Below, in pieces: positions 9,811-27,450 of a stretch of DNA of 64,000 bases (within the stretch, counting starts at the first letter, position 1; the number at the start of each line of letters is the position of its first letter). The DNA is from Escherichia coli. Lineage in GTDB: Bacteria > Pseudomonadota > Gammaproteobacteria > Enterobacterales > Enterobacteriaceae. Under the pieces are notes generated by a model that saw only the letters and a program-made list of their open reading frames with translations, was not told the origin of the DNA and ran no database searches. The stretch lies in the NCBI RefSeq assembly GCF_013315695.1, contig NZ_CP054354.1, one strand, 5' to 3'. A program made the position numbers and the translations under genes.

Positions 9811-10164
9811 TATTCTAATAACTGAATCCGCACACAGTCAAATGTCATTGTTGTGACTAAAAAACGCTCAATTCTCTGAGTGTGTGGCTGTATGCCTGCT
9901 GTGGGCTGCTGTGTCCAGCTTATCCACAGCATTTTGTGCACGGTTCTGTGGACAAAATACCTGGTTACCCAGGCCGTGCCGGCACGTTAACCGGGCTGCA
10001 TCCGATGCAAGTGTGTCGCTGTCGCCGGCCTCCTCACCCGGTCACGTTTCGTCGTTCCTCCTCCACGCGCTGCGGCTTCGGGGCCGCACCTGCATTCGTA
10101 TGCGGTCGCCCGGTAACAGGTGCGGCACGGCCTGATGGAGGCCGCATGTGAGAGGAGAATTCCC

Positions 10165-12873: not shown

Positions 12874-13644
12874 ATGAACGAAACGCTGAATGCACTGATT
12901 TGTCGCCACGCCCGTAACCTGCTGCTGGCGCAGGGCTGGCCGGAAGAGACGGATGTTGACCAGCGTAACCCGAAGTATCCGGGCTGGATCAGCATTTATG
13001 TTCTGCTGGATGCGCCCCGGCTGGCGACGTTACTTATCAACCGTCACGGCGGCGTACTGCCGCCGCTCCTGGCCTCTGCCATTCAGAAACTGACCGGAAC
13101 CGGGGCGGAACTTGTTCTGTCCGGCAGTCAGTGGCAGTCGCTGCCGGTACTTCCGGCAGACGGAACGCAGGTGTCTTTCCCGTATGCCGGAGAATGGCTG
13201 ACCGAAGACGAAATCAGGGCAGTTCTTGATGCGGTGCACGATGCGGTACGCAGTGTCAGTTGCCGGGTGGCAGAAGATGCGCGGCGTATCAGGGCGGCGC
13301 TGACCACAACCGGTCAGACGTTGCTGACCCGCCAGACGCGCCGCTTTCGCCTGGTTGTGAAGGAAAGCGATCACCCCTGCTGGCTCGATGAAGACGACGA
13401 AAACCTGCCCGTGGTGCTCGATGCCATCCTGAACCGGGGCGCTCGTTTTTCGTCGGTGGAAATGTATCTGGTCAGTGAGTGTGTGGAGCATATCCTGTCC
13501 AGTGGGCTGGCCTGCGATGTGCTGCGTATACCTGATGAACCGTCCCGTCGCTGGTTTGACCGGGATATTCTGCGGGAGGTGGTCCTGGAAGCCCGGACTG
13601 AAATCCGCAGCATGGCGGATGCACTGGCGAAAATCCGGAAATGA
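12874..13644 (+). CDS. Hypothetical leading-region protein (256 aa)
   Basis: Long ORF with backbone-like codon usage, no competing frame. Confidence 0.6.
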
Positions 13645-13700
13645 TGACGCTGGCGGGGAAAAATCTCCGCCTTTTCCAGCCGGTCCCCGGAAAGAGCAAA

Positions 13701-14040
13701 AGGATGTCGCCGCAGGCTCCGCTTTACCCGGCCATGCGGGGCATGGCCTTGTGGGTTTTCAGTTATGTGGCCTCAGCGCCGTGTGCGGGCTGTGCCGTGC
13801 CTCCATCGTAGCCGGGCTTCTGCGGGCGGGTTGCAAGGTAAGGTGAACCGCTGCGGTCACCCGGTCCCTCCTTCCCGTCTGCCGTGATTTTCCGGTCGTT
13901 CACCCGCTCAGATTTCGCGGTCTCACCCTTCAACTCCCGTCAGCCGTGCGCGTCAGGCTGCGGCTTCCCTTGCGCCCTTGCAACCCTGCAGGCCCGGCAA
14001 AGATGGAGGCACGGCACCGCCCGGTGTCGCGGAATATGTG
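13701..14040. repeat. GC-rich ~340-bp non-coding element, family A copy 1, immediately upstream of klcA
   Basis: Near-identical to 20650-20992; contains palindromes such as gccatgcggggcatggc; no supported ORF. Confidence 0.7.
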
Positions 14041-14059
14041 AACAACGGAGGAAAACATC

Positions 14060-14485
14060 ATGCAATATGCGAAACCTGTCACTCTGAACGTTGAAGAGTG
14101 CGACCGTCTGTCTTTTCTGCCTTACCTGTTTGGCCTGGATTTTCTGTATGCCGAAGCGTCTGTATACGCGCTGGCGAAAAAAATGATGCCGGAATATCAG
14201 GGAGGCTTCTGGCACTTCATCCGCCTGCCGGACGGTGGCGGTTACATGATGCCGGATGGCGACCGTTTCCACATGGTGAACGGTGCAAACTGGTTTGACC
14301 GTACCGTGAGTGCTGATGCCGCAGGCATCATCCTTACCTCCCTTGTGATTAACCGCCAGTTGTGGCTGTACCACGACAGCGGGGATGCAGGGTTGACACA
14401 CCTGTACAGGATGCGTGATGCGCAGTTGTGGAGCCACATCGAATTTCACCCCGAATGCAACGCGATTTACGCGGCACTTGACTGA
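14060..14485 (+). CDS. klcA: Antirestriction protein, KlcA/ArdB family
   Basis: 141 aa; FLPYLFG...[21 protein letters not shown]...SADAAGI matches the KlcA/ArdB pattern from memory; RBS aacggaggaaaa. Confidence 0.8.
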
Positions 14486-14531
14486 TTAACGGACGGGGCG
14501 GCAATGCCGCCCCTGTAAAGGAGACGAGAAC

Positions 14532-14954
14532 ATGTACTGTACTGTTAAAGAAATCATCCGCGATGTACTGGATACAGACGTGCCGGACAGTGAATGCGTT
14601 TTTGCCGTGGTGCTGACCCGTGGGGATGTGCGTCACATAGCCCAGGACTGGAACCTGTCAGACGATGAGCTGGAAACCGTCATGCAGCGACTGGACGATG
14701 CCTTTGAGCATGGTGCGGATGTCAGCGTTGTTCACGACGTTGTTCGTGAACTGATGGAAGAAAAGCGCGCCAGCCGTCATGTGACAGTCCCGGCGGTGAT
14801 GCTGGAAAAAGTGATGGCGCTGGCAGGCAGTGAAATGAAGCGCCTGTATGCCGTCGGGAGTGAGAACGGGGGCGACGGTGACGCATTCGTCAGGGAGGAA
14901 CGCGAAGCAATGGACGTTGTGTTACAGGCGCTGGACGGGGAGACGATGTCATGA
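14532..14954 (+). CDS. Hypothetical leading-region protein (140 aa); paralogue of 12395-12829
   Basis: RBS aaggagacgagaac-ATG nearly identical to that of 12395; acidic. Confidence 0.6.
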   Translation: MYCTVKEIIRDVLDTDVPDSECVFAVVLTRGDVRHIAQDWNLSDDELETVMQRLDDAFEHGADVSVVHDVVRELMEEKRASRHVTVPAVMLEKVMALAGSEMKRLYAVGSENGGDGDAFVREEREAMDVVLQALDGETMS

Positions 14955-15142
14955 ATATCAGCACAGAAACCCGCGAAATTCTGCGTAATTACAGGGCCGT
15001 GATTAATGCGCGGCGTCGTGAAATGGGGCAGAAACCGCTCACCACCGCGCAGATTGTTGATGAAATCTGCGATTTTGTGGCGAATCAGCAGGCGGTTTTC
15101 CTGGGCGGTCACTACATCCTTCAGGGCAGCAGAAACAGGTGA
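14951..15142 (+). CDS. Hypothetical small protein (63 aa)
   Basis: Start overlaps upstream stop (ATGTCATGA). Confidence 0.4.
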   Translation: MNISTETREILRNYRAVINARRREMGQKPLTTAQIVDEICDFVANQQAVFLGGHYILQGSRNR

Positions 15143-15342
15143 TACAGGGGCAGGCGGTGGAGGCCGCCTGTCAGCCCGCGCGAAAACCCCTGGCAGGCTG
15201 ACGCCTGCCGGAAACGCGGGGTGCAGCGCCTGCGGCGCTGCCGGCCCGGCTTTCCGGTCAGAAGGTAGTGTATGGCTGTATGCAGGGAACAGGAGTGATA
15301 TTCCGTGACACTGTCACCGTTTCTGGCTGTCTTTTATTGCGC

Positions 15343-15905
15343 CCACTTCGGCTCCCGGCTGCCTGGCGGCATCCGGTCGTCAGGCCCGACTCCGACGGGC
15401 AGCTGCTGGCGCACCCGCCAGTCTCCGCCGAACCCGCTGGCGCGGTTTCGGGCTGCCGCTACGGTCCGATGCGTGAAAACCCGGGCTTGCAGCGACCGTT
15501 CCGGTCGCGCCGCCCCTGTCGCGCCGTGACCTGCGCTCCCTGCACACCTGACGGTGTGTGAGGAAACTGCGCCTGATGGCGCAGCAGTCCTCCCTCCTGC
15601 CGCCCCCCCTGCGGCCTGTTTCCCCGCTGTGGACTTTCCGGGGGGCAGACGTAACCCCCTCCCGTTCCATCTGTCCAGGGTGAGATGCACCGGCCACAAA
15701 ATTTTTAGCCATGAACCCGGCAAAAAATTTTGCGTCCGCCCCCGGACAGCTGCCCCGTGAGGCGGTAAACGGGCCCCCATCGGAAAGGTCCACTGCGGGG
15801 AGAAACCCCTGTGAAGTGGACGGCAGGAGGAGCTTTCGCTCCTCTGAAGGGGCACATGAACGTCCCGTCGCCGGTATCCGGTTTATCTCACATCTTTCAG
15901 TCAGG
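15343..15905. repeat. GC-rich ~560-bp non-coding element, family B copy 1 (Frpo/ssi-like), upstream of ssb
   Basis: Repeated at 21690-22240 and partially at 25230-25600; hairpins such as ctgcgcc-tgat-ggcgcag; ORFs here lie on both strands without RBS. Confidence 0.65.
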
Positions 15906-15913
15906 AGGTTCTT

Positions 15914-16441
15914 ATGAGTGCACGTGGTATCAACAAGGTCATCCTCGTCGGGCGTCTGGGCAATGATCCGGAAGTCCGTTACATCCCCAACGGGGGCGCA
16001 GTGGCAAACCTGCAGGTGGCCACATCAGAAAGCTGGCGTGACAAACAGACGGGGGAGATGCGGGAGCAGACGGAATGGCACCGCGTGGTGCTGTTCGGCA
16101 AGCTCGCGGAAGTGGCAGGTGAATATCTGCGCAAGGGTGCGCAGGTCTACATCGAAGGTCAGCTTCGCACCCGTAGCTGGGAAGATAACGGTATCACCCG
16201 TTACGTCACTGAAATTCTTGTTAAGACCACGGGCACCGTGCAGATGCTGGGACGTGCACCACAGCAGAACGCTCAGGCGCAACCGAAGCCTCAGCAGAAT
16301 GGGCAGCCACAGAGTGCTGACGCGACGAAAAAAGGTGGCGCGAAAACGAAAGGCCGTGGACGTAAGGCCGCGCAGCCAGAGCCTCAGCCGCAACCGCCGG
16401 AGGGGGAGGATTACGGGTTTTCAGACGACATCCCGTTCTGA
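15914..16441 (+). CDS. ssb: Plasmid single-stranded DNA-binding protein
   Basis: 175 aa; OB-fold N-terminus ([18 protein letters not shown]), Gln/Pro-rich linker, acidic tail ending DDIPF; AGGAGG RBS. Confidence 0.95.
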
Positions 16442-16498
16442 TCGGGCTGACTGTGACAACCGCCCCGCCCTGTGCGGGGCATCACCGGAGATATGAGG

Positions 16499-16732
16499 AT
16501 GAGCGAATATTTCAGAATACTTCAGGGACTGCCGGACGGCTCCTTTACCCGCGAACAGGCGGAAGCCGTTGCCGCACAGCACCGGAACGTCTTTATCGAG
16601 GATGATCAGGGAACGCATTTTCGCCTGGTTGTCCGTCAGGATGGCACGTTGATCTGGCGCTCCTGGAATTTTGAGGACTGTGCCGGGTACTGGATGAACC
16701 AGTACATCAGGGATTTCGGGATTCTTAAGTAA
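16499..16732 (+). CDS. Hypothetical leading-region protein (77 aa)
   Basis: ATG at 16499 is 8 nt after GGAG (16487-16490); ORF track start 16472 is GTG without RBS. Confidence 0.5.
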
Positions 16733-16790
16733 GAGAGGTGCCGGACGCGCGAACGTCCGGCAGGACATAAGCAATTATAAGGGGATGATT

Positions 16791-18749
16791 ATGCCTGTAA
16801 CGAAGTGTGAACCAGAAACCACCCGCAAAGCAAGCCGTAAATCTGTAAAAACGCAGGAAACTGTCCTGTCTGCCCTGCTGGCGCAGACGGAGGAAGTGAG
16901 CGTGCCGCTGGCCTCGCTGATTAAATCACCGCTGAATGTGCGCACGGTGCCGTATTCTGCGGAGTCCGTCAGCGAACTGGCGGAGTCCATTAAGGGCGTC
17001 GGACTGCTGCAGAATCTGGTCGTGCATACCCTGCCTGGTGACCGTTACGCTGTCGCCGCAGGCGGTCGCCGACTGGCAGCACTCAACATGCTGGCAGAGC
17101 GCAACATCCTTCCGGCTGACTGGCCTGTACGCGTGAAGGTCATTCCGCAGGAGCTGGCGACTGCCGCATCGATGACCGAGAACGGTCAGCGTCGGGATAT
17201 GCACCCTGCCGAACAGATTGCCGGATTCCGCGCAATGGCGCAGGAAGGCAAAACACCTGCACAAATCGGTGATTTGCTGGGCTATTCACCCCGCCACGTT
17301 CAGCGAATGCTGAAACTGGCAGACCTTGCTCCGGTTATCCTCGATGCGCTGGCAGAAGACCGCATCACCACAGAGCACTGTCAGGCGCTGGCGCTGGAGA
17401 ACGACACCGCGCGTCAGGTGCAGGTGTTTGAAGCCGCCTGCCAGTCGGGATGGGGCGGTAAACCGGAAGTACAGACCATTCGTCGTCTGGTGACCGAAAG
17501 TGAAGTGGCGGTGGCGGGGAACAGTAAATTCCGCTTCGTGGGGGCTGATGCCTTCTCGCCAGACGAACTGCGCACCGATTTGTTCAGCGATGACGGGGAC
17601 GGTTATGTCGACCGCGTGGCGCTCGATGCCGCCCTGCTGGAAAAACTCCAGGCTGTCGCAGAGTTCCTTCGGGAAGCCGAAGGCTGGGAATGGTGCGCCG
17701 GACGCATGGAGCCTGTCGGTGAGTGCCGTGAAGATGCCCGGGCATACCGCAACCTGCCGGAGCCGGAAGCGGTGCTGACGGAGGCGGAAGACGAACGTCT
17801 GAACGAACTGATGGCTCGTTACGACTCGCTGGAAAACCAGTGTGAGGAATCTGACCTGCTGGCAGCAGAAATGAAGCTGATTGACTGCATGGCGAAGGTC
17901 AGGGCGTGGACGCCGGAGATGCGTGCCGGAAGTGGCGTGGTGGTGTCCTGGCGTTACGGTAATGTGTGTATCCAGCGTGGTGTGCAGTTGCGCAGTGAGG
18001 ATGATGTGGCTGACGACGCTGACCGCACGGAACAGGGGCTGGAGAGCGCGTCAGTGGAGGAAATTAGTCTGCCGTTGCTGACTAAATTGACCTCAGAGCG
18101 CACGCTGGCTGTCCAGGCAGCACTGATGCAGCAACCGGACAAATCCCTGGCACTGCTGGCATGGACGCTCTGCCTGAATGTGTTTGACAGCAAAGCGCAT
18201 AGTAGTCCCGCCAGAATTCGCCTGGAATGTGAGCATTATGCGCTGACCAGCGATGCACCGTCAGGGAAGGAAGGTGCCGCATTCATGGCGCTGATGGCAG
18301 AACACTCTCGTTTTGCTGCCCTGCTGCCGGAAGGATGGGAACGGGATATGACGACGTTCCTGTCACTTAGCCAGGAGGTGCTGTTATCCCTGCTCAGTTT
18401 CTGTACCGCGTGCAGTCTTAACGGTGTCCAGACCCGCGAGTGTGGTCACACGTCACGCAGTCCGCTGGACTCGCTGGAAACCGCCATCGGCTTTCACATG
18501 CGCGACTGGTGGCAGCCGACAAAAGCAAACTTCTTCGGACACCTGAAAAAGCCGCAGATTATCGCAGCCCTGAATGAGGCCGGACTGTCCGGTGCCGCAC
18601 GGGACGCGGAGAAAATGAAGAAAGGCGATGCGGCTGAACATGCAGAGTTCCATATGAAAGACAACCGCTGGGTGCCTGGCTGGATGTGTGCACCACGTCC
18701 ACAGACGGATGCCACTGAACACACCGCTAACCTGGCTGATGCCGCCTGA
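16791..18749 (+). CDS. ParB-like nuclease-domain protein of the leading region (~652 aa)
   Basis: N-terminal ParB/Srx-like segment (GLLQNLVVHTLPGDRYAVAAGGRRLAALNML); alternative ATG at 16785. Confidence 0.8.
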   Translation: MPVTKCEPETTRKASRKSVKTQETVLSALLAQTEEVSVPLASLIKSPLNVRTVPYSAESVSELAESIKGVGLLQNLVVHTLPGDRYAVAAGGRRLAALNMLAERNILPADWPVRVKVIPQELATAASMTENGQRRDMHPAEQIAGFRAMAQEGKTPAQIGDLLGYSPRHVQRMLKLADLAPVILDALAEDRITTEHCQALALENDTARQVQVFEAACQSGWGGKPEVQTIRRLVTESEVAVAGNSKFRFVGADAFSPDELRTDLFSDDGDGYVDRVALDAALLEKLQAVAEFLREAEGWEWCAGRMEPVGECREDARAYRNLPEPEAVLTEAEDERLNELMARYDSLENQCEESDLLAAEMKLIDCMAKVRAWTPEMRAGSGVVVSWRYGNVCIQRGVQLRSEDDVADDADRTEQGLESASVEEISLPLLTKLTSERTLAVQAALMQQPDKSLALLAWTLCLNVFDSKAHSSPARIRLECEHYALTSDAPSGKEGAAFMALMAEHSRFAALLPEGWERDMTTFLSLSQEVLLSLLSFCTACSLNGVQTRECGHTSRSPLDSLETAIGFHMRDWWQPTKANFFGHLKKPQIIAALNEAGLSGAARDAEKMKKGDAAEHAEFHMKDNRWVPGWMCAPRPQTDATEHTANLADAA

Positions 18750-18803
18750 TGAACAACCACACCGCCCCGCCGGAGACGGGGCGGCAGCAAGGGAGATACC
18801 GTG

Positions 18804-19238
18804 ATGAAAACTGAACTGACCCTGAATGCCCTGCAGTCCATGAACGCACAGGAATATGAAGATATCCGTGCTGCGGGAAGCGATATGCGCCGTAATCTCA
18901 CTCACGAGGTGATGCGTGAAGTGGACGCACCGGCTAACTGGGTGATGAACGGAGAGTATGGCAGTGAGTTCGGGGGCTTTTTCCCCGTCCAGGTTCGTTT
19001 CACGCCAGCCCACGAACGTTTCCACCTGGCATTATGTTCGCCGGGAGACGTCTCTCAGCTCTGGATGCTGGTTCTGGTGAATGGTGGTGGACAGCCTTTC
19101 GCCGTCGTTCAGGTGCAACATATCTTCACGCCTGTCGCGATCAGTCACACGCTGGCGCTTGCCGCGACACTGGATGCGCAGGGATACAGTGTTAACGACA
19201 TCATCCATATCCTGATGGCAGAAGGAGGTCAGGCATGA
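18804..19238 (+). CDS. psiB: Plasmid SOS inhibition protein PsiB
   Basis: [27 protein letters not shown]...[34 protein letters not shown] matches F PsiB as recalled; GGGAG RBS 8 nt upstream; GTG at 18801 used by the ORF track. Confidence 0.95.
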
Positions 19239-19954
19239 GCGCACGTTCACGGGCACTGATCCCCCTCAGCGCAGAACAACAGGCCGCCATGCAGGCGGTG
19301 GCTGTCACAGAACAACGTCGTCGTCAGGGACGCACACTTTCAGCATGGCCTTATGCCACCGCTTTCTTTCGCTGCCTGAATGGCAGTCGCCGGATTTCGC
19401 TGACCGATCTCCGCTTTTTTGCCCCTGCGCTGACGAAGGAGGAATTTCATGGCAACCGTCTCCTGTGGCTGGCTGCCGTGGATAAACTGATTGAAAGTTT
19501 TGGGGAAGTCTGTGTTCTTCCCCTGCCATCCGATGCGGGGCACCGTCTGTTCCCGTCCGTGCCTTTTCGTGAAGGTGAGCGTCGTCGTCAGAAAACCACG
19601 CTGACAGAGCAGAAATACAGCCGCCAGCGGGAACGTGAGGCAGAACGACGGGAACTGGAATACCAGACATGTTTTGCTCAGGCGCAGATTGACCTTGCGT
19701 TTCATACTCCCGCCACGGTCGGAAGCTGGTTGTCCCGCTGGTCTGGTGTTGTTGAGGAGCATGATCTGGAAACGATTTTCTGGGGGTGGTGCGGGCGTTT
19801 TCCATCACTGTCATCATTTGACCGGTTTTTCTGGCAGGAGGAACCACTCTGGCGGCTGATTTTTGAAGCCGGTGAGGCCGGTCGTGGTGCACCGGTACAG
19901 GTACGTGCACTTGAGCAGTGGATGATCCCGAACAAGCTGGAGAACGTAATATGA
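19235..19954 (+). CDS. psiA: PsiA
   Basis: 239 aa directly downstream of and overlapping psiB (ATGA), the conserved psiB-psiA arrangement. Confidence 0.85.
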
Positions 19955-20547
19955 TGAAATCAGACGAAAAATACCAGGTTCCCGCGTGGATGCGACCTCT
20001 GTTGCCGTTGCTCTGCAACACCGGGGGGAACGATCCGGAAGAACTGCTGAATGATACAGAAACCACTGCCAGTGCGAATGTTGTCCGTTATGTACTGATA
20101 GTTGCTGTGCGGTCGCAGGTTGATCTGCTGCAGCTTCTGTACAGGAAAGGGCTGTTGCGCACAGAGATACCAGGTGGCTTTTCACCGGAAGAAGCGCAGG
20201 CACTCCTGGATAATCTGGTGCGCAGCCATATCAGCAAGGCGCTGTCGGGCGAGCGAATGGCAGCCCGTGACAGAAATGCCGATCTGGCCTGGATTGGACA
20301 GCAACTGGTCGATGCCGCCTGGTTTGTCCGTGCCACACTGGAAGCGCATGGGATGAGCGTCGGAAATGAGAGTCCCCCTGCTCCGCCGGAGACAATGCCG
20401 GACATACAGACACGGGAACTGGTGATGTTGATCAAGCGACTGGCATCATCGCTGAAAGCGGTGAAACCGGACAGTTGTGTGGTGCGTGAAGCGCAGGACT
20501 GGCTGCGCGACAGAAAACTTGTGGATATCACAGATATTCTCCGGTGA
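19951..20547 (+). CDS. Hypothetical leading-region protein (198 aa)
   Basis: ATG overlaps psiA stop (ATATGA); ORF track start 19918 lies inside psiA. Confidence 0.55.
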   Translation: MMKSDEKYQVPAWMRPLLPLLCNTGGNDPEELLNDTETTASANVVRYVLIVAVRSQVDLLQLLYRKGLLRTEIPGGFSPEEAQALLDNLVRSHISKALSGERMAARDRNADLAWIGQQLVDAAWFVRATLEAHGMSVGNESPPAPPETMPDIQTRELVMLIKRLASSLKAVKPDSCVVREAQDWLRDRKLVDITDILR

Positions 20548-20649
20548 ACCAGGCATGTATATTTTACGCAGGGACATGCCGGTCATGATCGTTTCGTTCC
20601 AGGGGTGGTCTGGAGATCATGCGGTGTGCTCCCTGCTCTCGCCGGAATA

Positions 20650-20992
20650 AGGACGTCGCCGCCGGCTCCGCTTTTACCCGGCCATGCGGGGCATGGCCTT
20701 GTGGGTTTTCAGTTATGTGGCCGCCGTGTCGTGTGCGGGCTGTGCCGTGCCTCCATCGTAGCCGGGCTTCTGCGGGCGGGATGCAAGGTAAGATGAACCG
20801 CTGCGGTCACCCGGTCCCTCCTTCCCGTCTGCCGTGATTTTCCGGTCGTTCACCCGCTCAGATTTCGCGGTCTCACCCTCCAACTCCCGCCAGCCGTGTG
20901 CGTCAGGCTGCGGCTTCCCTTGCGCCCTTGCATCCCTGCAGGCCCGGCAAAGATGGAGGCACGGCACCGCCCGGTGTCGCAGAACATGTGAC
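20650..20992. repeat. GC-rich ~340-bp non-coding element, family A copy 2, immediately upstream of ardA
   Basis: Near-identical to 13701-14040 over ~330 bp. Confidence 0.7.
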
Positions 20993-21008
20993 TATGGAGG
21001 ATTCGGGA

Positions 21009-21509
21009 ATGTCTGTTGTTGCACCTGCTGTATACGTTGGAACCTGGCACAAATACAACTGTGGAAGCATCGCTGGCCGCTGGTTTGACCTGACAACGTT
21101 TGATGATGAACGCGACTTTTTCGCCGCCTGCCGTGCCCTTCACCAGGATGAAACCGACCCGGAACTGATGTTTCAGGATTATGAGGGATTCCCGGGGAAT
21201 ATGGCCTCTGAATGCCATATCAACTGGGCCTGGGTTGAAGGCTTCCGCCAGGCGCGGGATGAAGGCTGCGAAGAGGCTTATCGTCTCTGGGTGGATGATA
21301 CCGGTGAGACGGATTTTGACAGCTTCCGCGATGCCTGGTGGGGCGAGGCTGACAGTGAGGAGGCTTTTGCGGTTGAGTTCGTCAGTGATACCGGCCTGCT
21401 GGCTGACGTGCCGGAGACGGTGGCGCTCTATTTTGACTATGAGGCGTATGCGCGGGATTTATTCCTGGACTCCTTCACCTTTATTGACGGTCATGTGTTC
21501 CGTCGGTGA
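21009..21509 (+). CDS. ardA: Antirestriction protein ArdA
   Basis: 166 aa from ATG at 21009 (GGAGG RBS 20996-21000); MSVVAPAVYVGTWHKYNCGSIAGRWFDLTTFDDE and very acidic C-terminal half typical of ArdA DNA mimics. Confidence 0.85.
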   Translation: MSVVAPAVYVGTWHKYNCGSIAGRWFDLTTFDDERDFFAACRALHQDETDPELMFQDYEGFPGNMASECHINWAWVEGFRQARDEGCEEAYRLWVDDTGETDFDSFRDAWWGEADSEEAFAVEFVSDTGLLADVPETVALYFDYEAYARDLFLDSFTFIDGHVFRR

Positions 21510-21689
21510 TTTACTCCCCGCTCCGGCGGGGGGATGGCCTGCCAGGCCCCCGGAAAACCCTGGCAGGCTTACGCCTGCCTGAAATACAGGAGGGCCGCGC
21601 CTGCGGCGCTACCCTTCCTGCCTGTCATAGTGTGAGGCATTTTTCTGTTTTGTCGTTTCTGTTGTTCTGACTCCCGGGGGCGGGGACAC

Positions 21690-22240
21690 CCTTCGGCTCC
21701 CGGCTGCCTGGCGGCATCCGGTCGTCAGGCCCGACTCCGACAGGCAGCTGCTGGCGCACCCGCCAGTCTCCGCCGAACCCGCTGGCGCGGTTTCGGGCTG
21801 CCGCTACGGTCCGATGTCTGAAAAACCAGGCTTGCAGCGACCGTTCCGGTCGCGCCGCCTCTGTCGCGCCGTGACCTGCGCTCCCTGCACACCTGACGGT
21901 GTGTAAGGAAACTGCGCCTGATGGCGCAGTTGTCTGCCCTTCCGCCGCCCCCCCTGCGGCCTGTTTCCCCGCTGTGGACTTTCCGGGGGCTGAAGCGGCC
22001 ACAACACGTTTCAGCCGTCCAGGGGAGAGATGTACCAGCCACAAAACTTTTTGCCGCAAGCGTCAAAAACTTTTGCGTCTGCCCCCGGACAACTGCCCCG
22101 TGCCGTGGCAGTCGCTGCCCCATCGGAAAGGTCCACTGCGGGGAGAAACCCCGAAGAAGTGGACGGCAGAAGGGGCTTTCGCCCCTCCGGGGGAGCAACC
22201 GGTCGGCCCGGCGACCTGATTCAGCAGAAGGAGACGTTTT
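21690..22240. repeat. GC-rich non-coding element, family B copy 2 (Frpo/ssi-like)
   Basis: Aligns with 15343-15905 along most of its length; ends at the RBS of the 22242 gene. Confidence 0.65.
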
Positions 22241-22241
22241 C

Positions 22242-22676
22242 ATGACAGTCAGCAGCACGATTTCCGTTTTTTGCCGCGACGGGGTGTTCCGTACCGTTTA
22301 CTGCCACCTGCACGGTGAGCCGACCTGGAACGGTCGCATCCTGCATACCCACTATGCCACCGGTCAGCAGGCCGAAGCCCTGGTTGAACACGGTGATATC
22401 CGTTGCCTCGGTCCCCGTTGCGACAAACCCGCCGGGCATACGCTTCAGAACCCGGTGGACGGTGTGACGGCTTATTACGGACGTGACAGTGGTTTCCGGA
22501 TGGACAGTGAGGCGCGTGAGTACCGTTCTTTCAGGGAGGCCATCGCCACGGAAAGCACTGAAGAGGTGCGCTTCCATTATGTGTTCATCGACGGCTACTG
22601 GAAGGTGATGTACCGCACGCCGGAAGGCTGGAAGATGAAAGCGCTCGCGCTGGCACTGCGTCGCTGTCCGGAATGA
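22242..22676 (+). CDS. Hypothetical leading-region protein (144 aa)
   Basis: AAGGAG RBS then ATG at 22242; followed by hairpin terminator gcagggcgataaaccctgc (22682-22700). Confidence 0.55.
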   Translation: MTVSSTISVFCRDGVFRTVYCHLHGEPTWNGRILHTHYATGQQAEALVEHGDIRCLGPRCDKPAGHTLQNPVDGVTAYYGRDSGFRMDSEAREYRSFREAIATESTEEVRFHYVFIDGYWKVMYRTPEGWKMKALALALRRCPE

Positions 22677-22768
22677 AAAAAAGCAGGGCGATAAACCCTG
22701 CCTTTCTCCGCTGGCGCTTCCCCGTACGGAAGTCCGGCATCTCATTCACTAACTATGGAGATTATGCC

Positions 22769-23035
22769 ATGAGACCATCAATTATCTTCGCAACCGCCGA
22801 GTATGTAAAGCGTCTGCGAGAAGAGTGCCTGCGGGAGAACAAACCCCTGCACCGCCATACCCGCTTCAGACGCCAGGAACTGGCACCGGATGAGATTAAC
22901 CCGGACGTCCTGGCGATGGGCGGTCATATCGCCAGACGCTGCAGTGAGCAGAAGCGGGTACGTATCCCCGCCATGAAAGTCAGCGAATGGGGCCACCTGC
23001 TCCGCGCGCTTGAAATTGAACGGGTCTGTCACTGA
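22769..23035 (+). CDS. Hypothetical basic protein (88 aa)
   Basis: ATG at 22769 after ctatggagattatgcc; Arg/His-rich. Confidence 0.45.
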   Translation: MRPSIIFATAEYVKRLREECLRENKPLHRHTRFRRQELAPDEINPDVLAMGGHIARRCSEQKRVRIPAMKVSEWGHLLRALEIERVCH

Positions 23036-23211
23036 TTAACCCCTGCCGTCTGCCTGTGCAGGTGGCAGGATGTGTTCAGGTACTTTACCAGGAGGAACCG
23101 TGAGCAAGATGAAAAACATCACGACGTCTGTGTTGCATGGTGTCTCCACAAAAAACAGAAAAGGGAAACAGATTCTCTTTCATTCAGGGCCCGGGAGGGC
23201 TGGAGATAACA

Positions 23212-23601
23212 ATGAAGTCTTGTTTTGATACTGACAAAGCTTTTCATATGTCTTTTGATGAAGTCACTTTCAACGCTGACAGAATTCGCTCAAAACTGGA
23301 ACTATTATCCGAAGAACTAATGCCCCGTTGTGGTCTTGTTTATGAGCTATATCAGCGACGTTTGAGTGCTGCTATTGATAATTTTGTGGCCACATTGCCG
23401 ACAGAACAACATCTACTGGTCCTGGAACTGGCCCGTGAGGAGTTTGATTACCTTTCCGCAGAAGAGATTGCTGAAGAAATACGCCGTGACTCAGAACGCG
23501 GCTATTGTTGTCATGGCTTTGAACGCAATTGCTGTCCTCTCGGTTGTGGGGATTTGGGCGATGATTGCTGCGATGCTGCTGATTTGATGGAGGAACCGTG
23601 A
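23212..23601 (+). CDS. Hypothetical acidic protein with Cys-rich C-terminus (129 aa)
   Basis: GGAG RBS 23202-23205; C-terminal CCHGFERNCCPLGCGDLGDDCCD. Confidence 0.5.
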   Translation: MKSCFDTDKAFHMSFDEVTFNADRIRSKLELLSEELMPRCGLVYELYQRRLSAAIDNFVATLPTEQHLLVLELAREEFDYLSAEEIAEEIRRDSERGYCCHGFERNCCPLGCGDLGDDCCDAADLMEEP

Positions 23602-24512
23602 GTAAGAAGAAAAACACCACAACGCCCACGCCGCATGATGCCGCGTTCCGGTCGTTCCTGGCGAATCCCGACGTCGCCAGAGATTTTCTGGAACTGCATC
23701 TTCCTGCGGAGTACCGGCAGTTGTGCGACCTGTCCACGCTGAAGCTGGAACCCGCCACCTTTGTAGAGCCGGACCTGCATCAGTACGCCAGCGATATCCT
23801 CTGGAGCGTGAAAACCACCGGGGGTGAAGACGGCTATGTTTATACGCTCATCGAGCACCAGAGCACAGAAAATCTGTACATGCCTTTTCGCATGTTACGC
23901 TACAGTGTGGCGGCGATGCAGAGACATCTGGAGCAGCACAAAACGTTGCCACTGGTGATTCCGGTGCTGTTCTATCACGGTGAGCGCAGCCCGTACCCGT
24001 ACAGCATGAACTGGCTGGACTGTTTTGAGAATCCGGCACTTGCGGCTAAAATATACACAAAACCGTTTCCGCTGGTTGATATCACTGTCGTTGATGACAA
24101 TGAAATCATGAATCATCGCCGGATGGCCGCACTGACGCTGCTGATGAAGCATATCCGCCATCGTGACATGATGGAGCTGCTGGACAAACTCCCGCAGGTC
24201 ATGGTGGAAATTTCAGACGAGCAGGTGCGTGTTCTGATTCATTACATCGTTAACGCAGGGGACTCTGTATCACCGGAATTTATGCGGGCGCTGGCTGAGC
24301 GTCTGCCGCAGCATGAGGATAAACTGATGACTATCGCAGAACGTCTTGAGCAAAAAGGTCGCCAGGAAGGCAGGATGGAAGGACGCATGGAAGGAGCGCT
24401 TGAAAAAGCCCTGGCTATTGCGTGCCAGCTTCAGAAAATGGGGATGACGCCGGAGCAGATTAAGCAGGCTACCGGACTTTCCGATGACGAACTGAAGAAA
24501 ATCACTCACTGA
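23598..24512 (+). CDS. Rpn (YhgA-like) recombination-promoting nuclease, PD-(D/E)xK family
   Basis: 304 aa, GTG start after GGAGG; N-terminal PHDAAFRSFLANPDVARDFLELHLP and C-terminal QEGRMEGRMEG...MGMTPEQIKQATGLSDDELKK are characteristic of Rpn proteins as recalled. Confidence 0.8.
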   Translation: MSKKKNTTTPTPHDAAFRSFLANPDVARDFLELHLPAEYRQLCDLSTLKLEPATFVEPDLHQYASDILWSVKTTGGEDGYVYTLIEHQSTENLYMPFRMLRYSVAAMQRHLEQHKTLPLVIPVLFYHGERSPYPYSMNWLDCFENPALAAKIYTKPFPLVDITVVDDNEIMNHRRMAALTLLMKHIRHRDMMELLDKLPQVMVEISDEQVRVLIHYIVNAGDSVSPEFMRALAERLPQHEDKLMTIAERLEQKGRQEGRMEGRMEGALEKALAIACQLQKMGMTPEQIKQATGLSDDELKKITH

Positions 24513-24519
24513 TGAGAAC

Positions 24520-24552
24520 CGCAAAGCCCGGCAAAATCCCGGGCTTTTTTGC
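24520..24552 (+). terminator. Rho-independent terminator after rpn
   Basis: aaagcccggcaaaatcccgggctttttt: GC stem plus T-run. Confidence 0.6.
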
Positions 24553-24574
24553 CTGCAGGAGCAGAGCAAACAGC

Positions 24575-24745
24575 ATGACGATTGCAGAACGTCTTATACA
24601 GAAAGGTTTTGAAAAAGGTGCTCTTGAAGTGGCGCGGGAAATAGCCTGCCGGCTGCGGGATATGGGCTGGACGCCGGAACGGATTCAGGAGGCGACCGGA
24701 CTTTCCGGTGAAGAACTGAAAAAGCTGTTTCCTGATGAGCAGTAG
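24575..24745 (+). CDS. Free-standing Rpn C-terminal-domain paralogue (RpnS-like small protein, 56 aa)
   Basis: MTIAERLIQKGFEKGALEVAREIACRLRDMGWTPERIQEATGLSGEELKK parallels the rpn C-terminus MTIAERLEQKG...; begins after the rpn terminator; weak RBS. Confidence 0.45.
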   Translation: MTIAERLIQKGFEKGALEVAREIACRLRDMGWTPERIQEATGLSGEELKKLFPDEQ

Positions 24746-24775
24746 CCTGGCATTCTGCCAGGCTGTGAATCACGC

Positions 24776-25027
24776 TCACACATCCTCTGCCGTTTCCCCC
24801 AGTTCATTTTCCAGTCGCCTGATGATATCTGCCTTACGCATCCCCTGCATGTGAGGCAGCAGGTCACGGACTGAAAGTGCCTGGGTGGTCCTCCAGACGG
24901 TGACATCCACCTGCTCCGCATTTTCCCAGGCGTGCCATGTTCTCTGTGTCACGCCAAATTCTCTGGCCGCTTTTTCGCGTGACCAGAGCATGCTTTTTCG
25001 CCAGATTCGCAGTTCCCAGCCGGTCAT
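24776..25027 (-). CDS. Small Xre-like helix-turn-helix regulator (83 aa)
   Basis: REKAAREFGVTQRTWHAWE resembles an Xre-type HTH; divergent from the leading-region genes; operator-like repeats upstream. Confidence 0.5.
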   Translation of the reverse strand: MTGWELRIWRKSMLWSREKAAREFGVTQRTWHAWENAEQVDVTVWRTTQALSVRDLLPHMQGMRKADIIRRLENELGETAEDV

Positions 25028-25039
25028 AAAATACCTTTT

Positions 25040-25140
25040 AAAAAGTGAAAAAACTTCACTTTATTTTATCACCATAATCACCAAATCAGCGCGAAAAATA
25101 AATGTGAAAAAGTGAAGAAATTTCACTTTTTTTAGTTGTA
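25040..25140. promoter_or_regulatory. Inverted-repeat operator candidates (GTGAA-N-TTCAC) upstream of the Xre-like gene
   Basis: aaagtgaaaaaacttcacttt and gtgaaaaagtgaagaaatttcac in an AT-rich stretch. Confidence 0.4.
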
Positions 25141-25229
25141 GATGTCGTGCTGTTTTCTCTGTTTTCACCTGTGCGGGAGTGGGTGTCAGTGACCACCACA
25201 TGCCATTGTTGTGCCGTCGTTTTTCTTCA

Positions 25230-25600
25230 GTCGCGCCGGATGCAGCGCTCCCTGCACACCTTACGGTGTGTAAGGCCACTGCGCCTGATGGCGCAGCTGT
25301 CTCTGCCTGTCTGCCGCCGCACTGCGGCCTGTTCTCCGCAGACGGACTTTCCGGGGAACATACACGACCACATCCCGTTTCAGTTATCCAGGGGAGAGAT
25401 GTACCAGCCACAAAACTTTTTGCCGCAGGCGTCAAAAACTTTTGCGTCTGCCCCCGGACAACTGCCCCGTGACGTGGTGAGCATCCCCCGTCGGAAAGGT
25501 CCACTGCGGGGAAATCCCCGAAGACCCGGACGGCAGAAGGAGCTTCGCTCCTCCGGGAAATGACCTGGCTGACCCGGCAGTCGTGACGATGAGGAGACAA
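25230..25600. repeat. GC-rich non-coding element, family B copy 3 (partial, 3' ~370 bp)
   Basis: Aligns with the 3' part of 15343-15905 and 21690-22240; ends at the RBS of the 25605 gene. Confidence 0.6.
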
Positions 25601-25604
25601 TGTG

Positions 25605-26453
25605 ATGAATCAGACTTTACCCACTGCTGACCTGAATACTGCCGGCACGACAGATGTTATTCCGTCTGTAGCTATCGACCGCATCATCGCGCAGCGTAAC
25701 GAAGGTATTGCACTGTTCATGCAGGCGATGGAATGCCTGGCGACAGCGCGCAAGATTCTGCTCGATGCGTCAGGTGATATTTTTCTTTACGGGTTTGAAG
25801 ACTGCGTGACTGATTCCGTTCGTCGCATGGATAAGACGGAAGAAGCGAAAAGGAATATCACCCGTCTTGCCGACCGGAAAATCTGGGACCGCCTGATGAC
25901 AGATACGGGCATGTACACCTTCATGAGTTCATGCCAGCGTGATGAGTGGAACAGCCAGCTGATGAGCGACACCTGTCCTGAAATCACCCTGGACAATGTA
26001 CTGGCAACATTCCGCCATCTTAATGCCAGCAAGATGCAGACGTTTGAACAGGGGCTGATTGATGTCTACCGGAAATTGTCATGGGATTACAGAACCAATA
26101 ATCCCTGCCGTCTGGGTAAGAAAATCATTATTGAAAACCTACTGTACCGCTGGAGTAACGGGCGTGTGACGCTGGACTGCAGCGGACGGGAGGCACTGGA
26201 TGACCTGGTACGTCCGTTTTATCTGCTGGAGGGGCGCAACGTTCCTGACTTCAGGAACAGCATCGGGGCGCAGTATGGTGAATTTCTCGGGAACGGTGAC
26301 AATGTCGGTAAGCTGTTAGAAGGGGAATATTTTACGGTGCGTGGCTACCAGAAAGGGACCGTACACATTGTCTTTAAGCGTTCTGACCTTGTTGAAAAAC
26401 TGAATGATATTATTGCACGGCATTATCCTGGTGCATTGCCGCCACGAGTCTGA
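25605..26453 (+). CDS. Hypothetical leading-region protein (283 aa)
   Basis: GAGGAG RBS 25591-25596 then ATG at 25605; terminator-like hairpin at 26464-26496. Confidence 0.6.
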   Translation: MNQTLPTADLNTAGTTDVIPSVAIDRIIAQRNEGIALFMQAMECLATARKILLDASGDIFLYGFEDCVTDSVRRMDKTEEAKRNITRLADRKIWDRLMTDTGMYTFMSSCQRDEWNSQLMSDTCPEITLDNVLATFRHLNASKMQTFEQGLIDVYRKLSWDYRTNNPCRLGKKIIIENLLYRWSNGRVTLDCSGREALDDLVRPFYLLEGRNVPDFRNSIGAQYGEFLGNGDNVGKLLEGEYFTVRGYQKGTVHIVFKRSDLVEKLNDIIARHYPGALPPRV

Positions 26454-26538
26454 TTAAACAGAAAAGCCCAGGTATTTATGCCGGGGCTTTTTTTTCTGTA
26501 ATCATCATAATCTCAGAACACAATGTGACATTGTCACA

Positions 26539-26880
26539 TCAATTGTTGTTCATATCGATGCCATCTTTCCTGCCTGAATCTGTCTTTTTAGGTGCTGTTT
26601 TAGAGGAAGAACGGCGGGATGGTTTTTTCGATTCTGCTTCCCGAATAATGTCACGAAGTGCTTTCTCTCCTACTTCATATCCTGCATTTTTGAGCGTGTC
26701 ACGAACATCTGTCAGTGTATAACCCTTTGTCCTTACCAGGATAATGATGTCATCACGAATGGCATCAAGAAAATCACGCAATGTTTTCCGTTGAGCGGTG
26801 AGGTCTGGCAATTCCGATAAAGCAGCTTTTGCCAGCTGGATGTCATCATCTGAGTAAAATTTTTTAGACGCCATTGGCAC
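26539..26880 (-). CDS. Hypothetical Lys/Ser-rich protein adjacent to oriT (113 aa)
   Basis: GGAGAG RBS before GTG at 26880 (alternative ATG at 26874); basic C-terminal tail. Confidence 0.5.
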   Translation of the reverse strand: MPMASKKFYSDDDIQLAKAALSELPDLTAQRKTLRDFLDAIRDDIIILVRTKGYTLTDVRDTLKNAGYEVGEKALRDIIREAESKKPSRRSSSKTAPKKTDSGRKDGIDMNNN

Positions 26881-26989
26881 TTTCTCTCCGTTTAATGTTG
26901 AAGCCTGATTTTATCATCAAAAACTGCCTCCTGGCAGGGCTGCGCCCTGCCTCTGCCGTCTGCATAAGACTATGATGCACAAAAATAAC

Positions 26990-27065
26990 AGGCTATAATG
27001 GACTGAAAAACGGGACAGGATGTGTAATCGTATAACCGCGCACGCACGGCTATACGATTACCACC
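26990..27065 (-). other. oriT core: MOBP-type nic site ATCCTG|T on the minus strand (nick between 27016 and 27015) plus 11-bp inverted repeat
   Basis: Minus strand reads cacATCCTG|TCCCGTTTTTC; inverted repeat GTAATCGTATA...TATACGATTAC at 27024-27061, 7-8 nt from the nick; sits just upstream of nikA-nikB. Confidence 0.75.
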
Positions 27066-27106
27066 TGGTCAGGGCTTAGCCCCGACACCCCGGTAAGGAG
27101 CAGACC

Positions 27107-27439
27107 ATGAGTGAGAAGAAAACCCGAAGTGGCAGTGAGAAACGGCAAAAGAATGTCCTCATTGCTGTTCGTTTTTCACCAGAAGAGGCTGAGATTGTTA
27201 AAGAAAAGGCAGAAAAAAACGGACTGACAGTTTCAACTCTGATAAGAAAAACTGTGCTGGGAAAACAGATAAATGCCCGCATTGACGAAGATTTTTTGAA
27301 AGAGCTGATGCGTCTTGGTCGCCTGCAGAAGCATCTGTTTGTGGAAGGAAAACGCACGGGAGATAAAGAGTATGCAGAGGTTCTCGTTGCTATTACAGAG
27401 CTTGCTAATACTCTGCGAAGAAATTTAATGGGACGCTGA
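27107..27439 (+). CDS. nikA: Relaxosome accessory protein NikA (ribbon-helix-helix)
   Basis: 110 aa; VRFSPEEAEIVKEKAEKNGLTVSTLIRK...LMRLGRLQKHLFVEGKR matches R64 NikA as recalled; AAGGAG RBS. Confidence 0.9.
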   Translation: MSEKKTRSGSEKRQKNVLIAVRFSPEEAEIVKEKAEKNGLTVSTLIRKTVLGKQINARIDEDFLKELMRLGRLQKHLFVEGKRTGDKEYAEVLVAITELANTLRRNLMGR

Positions 27440-27450
27440 GATAATCGCTG

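Follow-up and report, generated by a model that had tools for sequence, protein, structure and literature searches.

Three repeats of an IncI1 plasmid leading region as highly probable class 1 (Frpo-type) single-stranded-DNA promoters

Three dispersed direct repeats (copies A, B and C) in the window, i.e., the whole 64-kb stretch of DNA analysed here, are very probably (probability of about 0.93) ssi3, ssi2 and ssi1, the class 1 (Frpo-type) single-stranded-DNA (ssDNA) promoters of the IncI1 leading region. The source stretch is an IncI1 plasmid leading region, with at least 99% identity to many ColIb-P9, R64 or pESBL-like plasmids. A preliminary description had proposed a promoter role for the repeats, a reading that is right but not new, because they are the already characterised ssi3, ssi2 and ssi1. 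The outcome for this window is confirmatory, with three known elements annotated precisely and the transferred strand fixed. We have observed identity to the characterised elements, their position and strand relative to nic, and a strand-biased hairpin with covarying pairs.

The ssi promoters explain how plasmid genes for SOS inhibition, ssDNA binding and anti-defence are expressed before the double-stranded state is reached, and this early burst of expression plays a central part in how resistance plasmids spread. The analysis also points to a variant allele of ssi2 and to an as yet uncharacterised module upstream, both open to testing in the experimental systems established for pESBL or F.

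Repeat copies and their characterised counterparts

The repeats had been placed at 15343-15905, 21690-22240 and 25230-25600, and there we have indeed found three copies sharing long stretches. Copies A and B were 88.8% identical over 500 nt (96% in a stretch of 299 nt), copies B and C 84% over 336 nt, and copies A and C 80% over 331 nt (BLAST E-values among the copies from 1e-72 to 0). A profile search of all 64 kb gave a copy number of exactly three. As had been proposed, each copy abuts a plus-strand gene, the repeat stopping shortly 5' of the start codon of ssb, a 144-aa gene and a DUF4942 gene (ATGs at 15914, 22242 and 25605, respectively). All three ssi copies read on the minus strand, and each is followed after 49-66 nt by a ribosome-binding site and start codon of the correct strand.

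The extents given in the preliminary description had to be revised. Positions 15343-15515 and 21688-21860, counted there as copies A and B, fall outside the published ssi boundaries; these first ~170 nt are part of a separate conserved upstream module of ~195 nt. The third copy had been taken as partial, and it is the whole published ssi1 (329 nt), short only in relation to the longer A/B repeat. Two small hairpins noticed earlier are both real, with counterparts in 3/3 copies: CTGCGCC-TGAT-GGCGCAG (plus-strand reading; 15567-15584, minus strand) and CACACC-TGAC-GGTGTG (15543-15558, minus strand), both given here as positioned within ssi3. The loop of the second is TGAC and not TGACGG. The dominant imperfect hairpin of ~190 nt was absent from the earlier description.

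The ColIb-P9 ssi1, ssi2 and ssi3 (AJ238399.1) reportedly go back to Bates et al. in 1999. The references for alignment were those of Supplementary Table 2 of Samuel et al. 2024 (ColIb-P9 ssi1-3 and F ssiD/Frpo). For AP001918 and AB021078, the RefSeq equivalents were used. This alignment, which had been suggested as a check, found similarity to characterised Frpo/ssi sequences for all three copies and bore out the label Frpo-like. Full-length matches to ColIb-P9 were obtained at 98.5% for ssi3 (331 nt, AJ238399.1:11381-11711), 97.9% for ssi1 (329 nt, AJ238399.1:1459-1787) and 86.7% for ssi2 (326 nt), and F ssiD/Frpo matched the window copies at 75-77% at the hairpin apex (78-136 nt, E 1.7e-15 to 6.7e-8). 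A scan of 13000-28000 with E up to 1 returned no relevant Rfam family.

Copy A, ssi3, occupies 15516-15847 on the minus strand and is 98.8% identical to pESBL ssi3. It lies upstream of ssb (15914-16441, plus strand; Pfam SSB, E 2.4e-37), the first gene of an operon that continues with DUF905, a ParB-like gene, psiB and psiA. Copy C, at 25228-25555 on the minus strand, is a complete ssi1 and the copy closest to nic, with 98.5% identity to pESBL ssi1. Behind it lies the DUF4942 gene (25605-26453, plus strand; PF13708, E 4.8e-51; alternative start GTG at 25602), which is also annotated in ColIb-P9 and pESBL.

Copy B, the syntenic ssi2 (21861-22189, minus strand), is a mosaic allele: the base of its stem is of ssi2 type (100%), its apex of ssi1 type (97%) and its distal part of ssi3 type (97%). 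Because it mixes segments of all three elements, ssi copies do recombine. The mosaic was present at 99% identity or more in 176 of the 2051 matching plasmids, and is a minority allele, 13% different from the one that was studied experimentally. The first gene behind it encodes 144 aa (22242-22676, plus strand) and is followed by genes at 22769-23035, 23212-23601, 23598-24512 (an Rpn/YhgA-like nuclease; PF04754, E 1.5e-78) and 24512-24745. Pfam assigned no family to the first three of these genes (those starting at 22242, 22769 and 23212).

Hairpin fold and the transferred strand

The transferred-strand fold of each copy is an imperfect hairpin of ~190 nt (z -6.4 to -8.2), whose stability on the minus strand exceeds that on the plus strand by 13-18 kcal/mol in all copies. 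The main hairpins, all on the minus strand, span 15618-15806 in ssi3 (apex at ~15710-15717; -64.7 kcal/mol minus vs. -51.9 plus strand, ssDNA fold; z = -7.07 in a 414-nt context), 21963-22149 in ssi2 (-65.6 vs. -51.6 kcal/mol; z -8.18) and 25332-25513 in ssi1 (-50.1 vs. -36.3 kcal/mol; z -6.42). On the minus strand, the main hairpins hold 2-7 G-T pairs, and the full elements 6-10. Compensatory changes among IncI and IncF relatives were found in 17 of the 55 consensus pairs, compared with 3-6 in slid controls, and 95.4% of the cells were paired (43-53% in slid controls). Between the main hairpin of ssi3 and the ssb ribosome-binding site, the transferred strand also carries a mini-hairpin, GAGGAGC-GAAA-GCTCCTC (15827-15844, minus strand), which contains GCGAAAGC; the corresponding sequence is GCGAAAGC in copy B and GCGAAGC in copy C.

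The heptamer CCCTGGA was invariant, and the next C nearly so, in 11/11 aligned IncI/IncF family members. On the non-template arm of the ssi3 hairpin, TGGACA (15672-15677, minus strand) is a putative, unmapped -35 box that agrees with TTGACA at 5 of 6 positions; in the duplex form, the plus strand reads CGGACA at this place. A doubtful -10 candidate, TTACGT (15649-15654, minus strand), follows 17 nt after TGGACA in a mismatched, bulged part of the stem, and its sequence lacks conservation across the family. The -10 candidate hexamers were poor and not conserved, and the positions obtained from a weighted -35/-10 scan disagreed between family members. What we give for -35, -10 and +1 are candidates deduced from the sequence, with the +1 of ssi3 put at ~15778-15780, and the promoter could alternatively be oriented within the hairpin from base toward apex. 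No sigma-70-like duplex site was found on the plus strand inside any of the three repeats.

The leading region adjoins oriT, and all downstream genes are on the plus strand, pointing toward nic. The nick-region motif CATCCTG|T of the IncI1 oriT was located at 27015-27022 on the minus strand, between the DUF4942 side and nikA/nikB, and, going by R64 and RP4-type oriT, we take it to be the IncI1 nick site. Since the motif is on the minus strand, this strand is both the one transferred and the template of the genes. The numbering agreed with the distance from nic, as subtracting 25555 from 27014 gives 1459, the coordinate listed for ssi1 in AJ238399. The ssDNA-promoter arrangement of F and ColIb leading regions, to which the window had been likened, holds in position by oriT, gene direction and transferred-strand template.

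During conjugation, the relaxase would nick the minus strand at ~27015 and the nicked strand would enter the recipient with its 5' end leading, so that the DUF4942 gene and ssi1 (1.5 kb from nic) would come in first, with ssi2 at 4.8 kb and ssi3 at 11.2 kb. While still single-stranded, the ~190-nt imperfect palindromes would fold into long hairpins, each rebuilding a duplex promoter in which the non-template arm supplies the -35-like TGGACA and a mismatched region follows 17 nt on. Host sigma-70 RNA polymerase would then bind the hairpin and, moving toward nic, transcribe its 5' arm and the transferred strand downstream of it. Three mRNAs are predicted, one for ssb-DUF905-ParB-like-psiB-psiA, one for the 144-aa gene operon and one for the DUF4942 gene. 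Complementary-strand synthesis would iron out the hairpin and turn the promoters off, so expression would be confined to a brief burst as the strand comes in; the transcripts may in addition prime that synthesis.

For polymerase binding, ssDNA dependence and early induction, the proposal draws on the ColIb-P9, F and pESBL work. By analogy with the near-identical pESBL elements and with F Frpo1/Frpo2, the window copies would support sigma-70 transcription only when single-stranded, with early transient induction. RNA-seq of the collinear IncI1 plasmid pESBL revealed six induced operons, and 5' RACE confirmed ssi1-3 as their "class 1" ssDNA promoters; the starts were mapped, and early induction reached up to ~500-fold (Wen et al. 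2025; PMC12672017). Early expression of the genes at 22242 and 25605 had been predicted from the window, and it has already been shown for the collinear pESBL operons behind ssi2 and ssi1 (PMC12672017). The region has been described as three operons transcribed by ssi3 to ssi1 (PMC10104558), and 13,089 Frpo homologues were counted in 6,006 conjugative elements (PMC11541004). Deletions of Frpo1 and Frpo2 in F abolished early expression and production of the downstream proteins (PMC9849209).

These last deletions bear on a different reading, in which the ssi elements would be mainly priming signals, with RNA polymerase making on the hairpin a short primer RNA for complementary-strand synthesis and mRNA being secondary. 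Frpo was first defined as a primer-RNA origin (summarised in PMC7690428), and a 2026 preprint describes transcription-dependent early conversion near the ssp1/Frpo promoters in F. We consider priming as the main function quite unlikely, given the ribosome-binding site and start codon that lie, correctly oriented, 49-66 nt downstream of each copy, the loss of downstream proteins upon deletion of either Frpo1 or Frpo2 (PMC9849209) and the induction of whole operons in the pESBL RNA-seq (PMC12672017). The priming and promoter roles are not exclusive.

The strand bias of the fold argues against the hairpins acting in plus-sense RNA, as 5' leaders of transcripts from ordinary upstream promoters, and not in DNA. 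A palindrome folds on either strand, and the plus-strand fold still reached -36 to -52 kcal/mol; however, the minus strand was the more stable by the margin given above, and in place of its conserved G-T pairs the plus strand or the RNA has C-A mismatches. Together with the lack of an upstream sigma-70-like promoter on the plus strand and with a functional F Frpo2 reporter construct that begins at the hairpin base, this makes the RNA-leader reading very improbable. Still less credible is that the repeats are passive, dispersed duplications that persist only because homologous recombination uses them as substrates or leaves them as by-products. Such an origin would suit the mosaic structure of ssi2, and Couturier et al. 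noted the same risk for Frpo1/Frpo2 (PMC9849209), but the hairpin was kept by compensatory changes across IncI/IncF despite diverging faster than the neighbouring genes, and position and strand are fixed relative to genes and nic. The identification of the repeats as class 1 ssDNA promoters is the reading we favour.

A conserved segment upstream of ssi3 and ssi2

The conserved non-coding module of ~195 nt sits directly upstream of ssi3 (module A, 15346-15541, of which only the last ~26 nt are inside the published ssi3) and of ssi2 (module B, 21691-21886, 97% identical to module A with 6 differences), and is absent from ssi1. No fewer than 5000 plasmids have it with an identity of 95% or above. 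The copy of an IncF Klebsiella plasmid was 96.9% identical, with sharp boundaries, and in an IncF plasmid the module is joined to a Frpo hairpin 5' of a different operon. Partial homologues were present in Salmonella and insect-gut elements, one hairpin being swapped in the insect-gut element for a different stem at the same place.

It is rather doubtful that this ~195-nt segment is an independent functional element and not a part of the promoter. It might serve, for example, to insulate or block the transferred strand, or as an RNA terminator; if true, the module would keep the promoter hairpin from being melted by polymerases of the upstream operon or by the growing complementary strand. When a Rho-loading signature was looked for, the plus strand had a C/G ratio of only 1.26-1.30, with 31-33% G.

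Several other identities of the module were considered and rejected. Reading frames are open in modules A and B, but they are broken by a 1-nt indel in the IncF copy and their translations are rich in Arg, Pro and Ala, which speaks against a protein-coding segment. A phage G4-type primase origin was discarded, the module having no similarity to any phage record. Nor is its conservation (97% between IncI1 and IncF) exceptional: the neighbouring coding genes are 82-96% identical, most of them 92-96%, so the module just ranks in the upper part of this background. The unusual part is the hairpin, which diverges faster than the neighbouring genes.

Comparison with known leading-region promoters

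The ssDNA promoters of class 2 (ssp2, which precedes klcA and ardA) and class 3 (ssp3, which precedes the methylase) share with the three ssi repeats the leading-region location, the strand logic and the large-hairpin design, but form a separate repeat family with no sequence similarity to them; class 2 copies lie in the window at 13700-14045 and 20650-20995. F Frpo1 (ssiD) and Frpo2 have the same architecture and role, including one copy upstream of ssb, and a homologous apex with the AAAA/TTTT run, the conserved bulge (CAT[C/T]T..AC) and the CCCTGGAC / GTCCGGGG core. They differ in that identity is only 75-80%, over 78-143 nt, and in the sequences of the outer stem and small flanking hairpins; F has two copies whereas the window has three, and the predicted pairing in F extends to ~315 nt. 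The closest counterparts are the ssi1-3 elements of ColIb-P9 and pESBL, which belong to the same plasmid family and agree with the window copies in their three syntenic positions, strand and downstream genes, the difference being the window ssi2, only 86.7-87% identical to their allele.

Identity of the repeats and of the plasmid

Pairwise comparison and a profile search confirmed that the three dispersed direct repeats claimed in the preliminary description are real. Copies A and B were 88.8% identical over 500 nt, including a 299-nt stretch at 96%, copies B and C 84% over 336 nt, and copies A and C 80% over 331 nt. The profile, built from 11 family members, found exactly three class 1 (ssi1-3 type) copies in the 64 kb. 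The two small hairpins noticed earlier were found in all three copies (15543-15558 and 15567-15584 in copy A). As also described, the repeats preceded plus-strand genes, ending 49-66 nt 5' of a start codon with a Shine-Dalgarno sequence (ssb, 15914, behind copy A; a 144-aa gene, 22242, behind copy B; a DUF4942 gene, 25605, behind copy C).

We have then run the alignment to characterised Frpo/ssi sequences that had been proposed as a check, comparing by BLAST the window with ssi1-3 of ColIb-P9 and ssiD and ssiE of F (Supplementary Table 2 of Samuel et al. 2024, PMC11541004). All matches lay on the minus strand: ssi3 at 15847-15516 (98.5% over 331 nt), ssi2 at 22189-21861 (86.7% over 326 nt) and ssi1 at 25555-25228 (97.9% over 329 nt). 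F ssiD (Frpo) matched all three copies around the apex (75-77% over 78-136 nt, E 1.7e-15 to 6.7e-8), and BLAST returned no match to F ssiE in the window. The pESBL elements were 98.8% (ssi3), 98.5% (ssi1) and 87.0% (ssi2) identical to the window copies. Copy C, previously regarded as partial, is a complete ssi1, being shorter than copies A and B only because these have an extra segment in common. Hence, the interpretation was supported: the three repeats are the known class 1 single-stranded promoters ssi1-3 of IncI1 plasmids and, the elements being already known, the main claim holds nothing new.

Positions 15000-26000 matched more than 5000 enterobacterial plasmids, with IncI1 plasmids of E. 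coli, Shigella and Salmonella aligning over the full length at 99.2-99.6% identity. The gene order in an annotated IncI1 relative (L001) was methylase, klcA-like antirestriction gene, ssb, DUF905, ParB-like gene, psiB, psiA and ardA, followed by unknown genes, an Rpn-family nuclease, the DUF4942 gene and then mobC, nikA and nikB. ColIb-P9 (L003) and pESBL-EA11 (L008) were collinear with the region, which is the leading region adjoining oriT in a plasmid of the ColIb-P9/R64/pESBL type.

The ssi2 copy (21861-22189) shared only ~87% identity with the allele of ColIb-P9 and pESBL, the one that has been studied by experiment. Its stem base was identical to ColIb ssi2, with the apex 97% ssi1-type and the distal small-hairpin part 97% ssi3-type. 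At the sequence level, this patchwork indicates that the three copies have undergone gene conversion with one another. The allele was present at ≥99% identity in 176 of 2051 matching plasmids.

Single-strand folding and the transferred strand

The minus-strand ssDNA of every copy was predicted to fold into a long imperfect hairpin (A, 15618-15806; B, 21963-22149; C, 25332-25513), with z-scores of -7.07, -8.18 and -6.42, respectively, in 400-nt contexts. Plus-strand folds of the main segments were 13-18 kcal/mol weaker than the minus-strand folds. The latter contained 2-7 G-T pairs per main hairpin and 6-10 per full element, which are C-A mismatches on the opposite strand. A family alignment was made from 11 hairpins (window A, B and C; ColIb ssi1 and ssi2; IncI-gamma ssi2; F Frpo1 and Frpo2; two more IncF; S. 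marcescens). The consensus comprised 55 pairs, with 95.4% of cells paired versus 43-53% when the partners were slid, and two-sided changes in 17 consensus pairs versus 3-6 in the slid controls. An A/T-rich apex, a 9-10-nt bulge on the 3' arm (CAT[C/T]T..AC) and the pairing of CCCTGGAC with GTCCGGGG were invariant. The stretch separating the main hairpin from the ribosome-binding site also held a short hairpin (minus strand 15827-15844 and equivalent sites in B and C), which contained GCGAAAGC in copies A and B and GCGAAGC in copy C; we take these to be the sequences known to form DNA mini-hairpins of unusual stability.

No sigma-70-like site was found on the plus strand of the duplex within any of the three repeats, which fits a promoter existing only in the folded single strand. 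In ssi3, the candidate -35 box is TGGACA on the non-template arm (plus coordinates 15672-15677), a 5/6 match to TTGACA oriented for transcription toward ssb; the plus-strand hexamer of the duplex at this site is CGGACA. The stem is mismatched and bulged 17 nt beyond this box, where TTACGT faces TAAACG, and then opens into an internal loop; +1 would accordingly fall near 15778-15780. The -10 hexamers were poor and varied in sequence across the family; an alternative orientation, base toward apex, scored similarly in F.

The DUF4942 side and nikA flank the minus-strand motif CATCCTG|T (27022-27015), which lies within GGGGTGTCGGGGCTAAGCCCTGACCAGG...TTATACGATTACACATCCTGTCCCG, presumably the IncI1 (R64) oriT with its RP4-type nick region. 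The position of nic was checked independently: 27014 minus 25555 gives 1459, the exact coordinate of ssi1 in the ColIb-P9 record AJ238399, which is therefore numbered from nic. This agreement, together with the strand of the nick motif, supported that the minus strand enters with its 5' end leading, starting at 27015 and proceeding to lower coordinates. The minus strand is the template for all plus-strand leading genes.

A module upstream of ssi3 and ssi2

A discrete non-coding module of ~195 nt precedes ssi3 (15346-15541) and ssi2 (21691-21886), not ssi1, and extends past the published ssi boundaries. Its two copies differed at 6 positions and had a sharp left boundary. The module occurred at ≥95% identity in at least 5000 plasmid records; an IncF Klebsiella plasmid carried a copy 96.9% identical, preceding a Frpo hairpin that lies 5' of a different operon, and F retained only ~40-70 nt from the right end. 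Samuel's table also provided partial homologues, in an element from Salmonella and in one from an insect gut; the insect-gut element kept one hairpin and had another swapped for a different stem at the same site. The module contained no conserved reading frame, had neither an Rfam nor a phage match, and gave modest structure signals (z -2.8 as minus-strand DNA, -2.1 as plus-strand RNA). Between IncI1 and IncF, the genes nearby were 82-96% identical, so that the conservation of the module is only at the upper end of the local range; the class 1 hairpin aligned between these groups at only ~80% over 83 nt. The functional F Frpo2-acrIIA4 construct begins at the main-hairpin base (Samuel et al. 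2024, PMC11541004), so that in F sequences upstream of the hairpin are dispensable for promoter function.

Upstream of ssi1, the place of the module is occupied by two A/T-rich palindromes (25040-25062 and 25109-25131), the second followed by a T run and intrinsic-terminator-like. A conserved small hairpin, CCTGGCAGGC-TKAC-GCCTGCC, lies just past the last gene of the upstream operon in the ssi3 and ssi2 contexts (15181-15214 and 21551-21584) and is shared by F upstream of Frpo2 (L002 ~9880-9910). Long ORFs run through the GC-rich repeats (plus 15268-15561; minus 15334-15855 and 21725-22258), and public records list some of these as hypothetical proteins (e.g., L001 8281-8562). The ORFs were not maintained from one copy to the next and are probably spurious.

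Relation to characterised leading regions

A second repeat family was observed at 13700-14045 and 20650-20995, with copies 95% identical. Each copy contains a 32-nt inverted repeat whose arms are 174 nt apart and directly precedes a gene, the klcA-like antirestriction gene (14060-14485) in the first case and ardA (21009-21509) in the second. Its members are the counterparts of ssp2, the class 2 ssDNA promoters known from pESBL and F. Wen et al. (2025, PMC12672017) distinguished three classes of ssDNA promoter in pESBL: class 1 comprises ssi1-3, class 2 the hairpins preceding klcA and ardA, and class 3 the hairpin preceding the methylase. Frpo homologues number 13,089 across 6,006 conjugative elements (Samuel et al. 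2024, PMC11541004), and deletions of Frpo1 and Frpo2 abolished early expression in F (Couturier et al. 2023, PMC9849209). For ssi3 to ssi1, transcription of three operons has been reported (Benz et al. 2023, PMC10104558). RNA-seq of pESBL transconjugants revealed strong induction of six leading-region operons, up to ~500-fold at 15 min, and 5' RACE mapped all six starts (Wen et al. 2025, PMC12672017). The predicted early expression of the genes at 22242 and 25605 has therefore already been borne out in this collinear relative.
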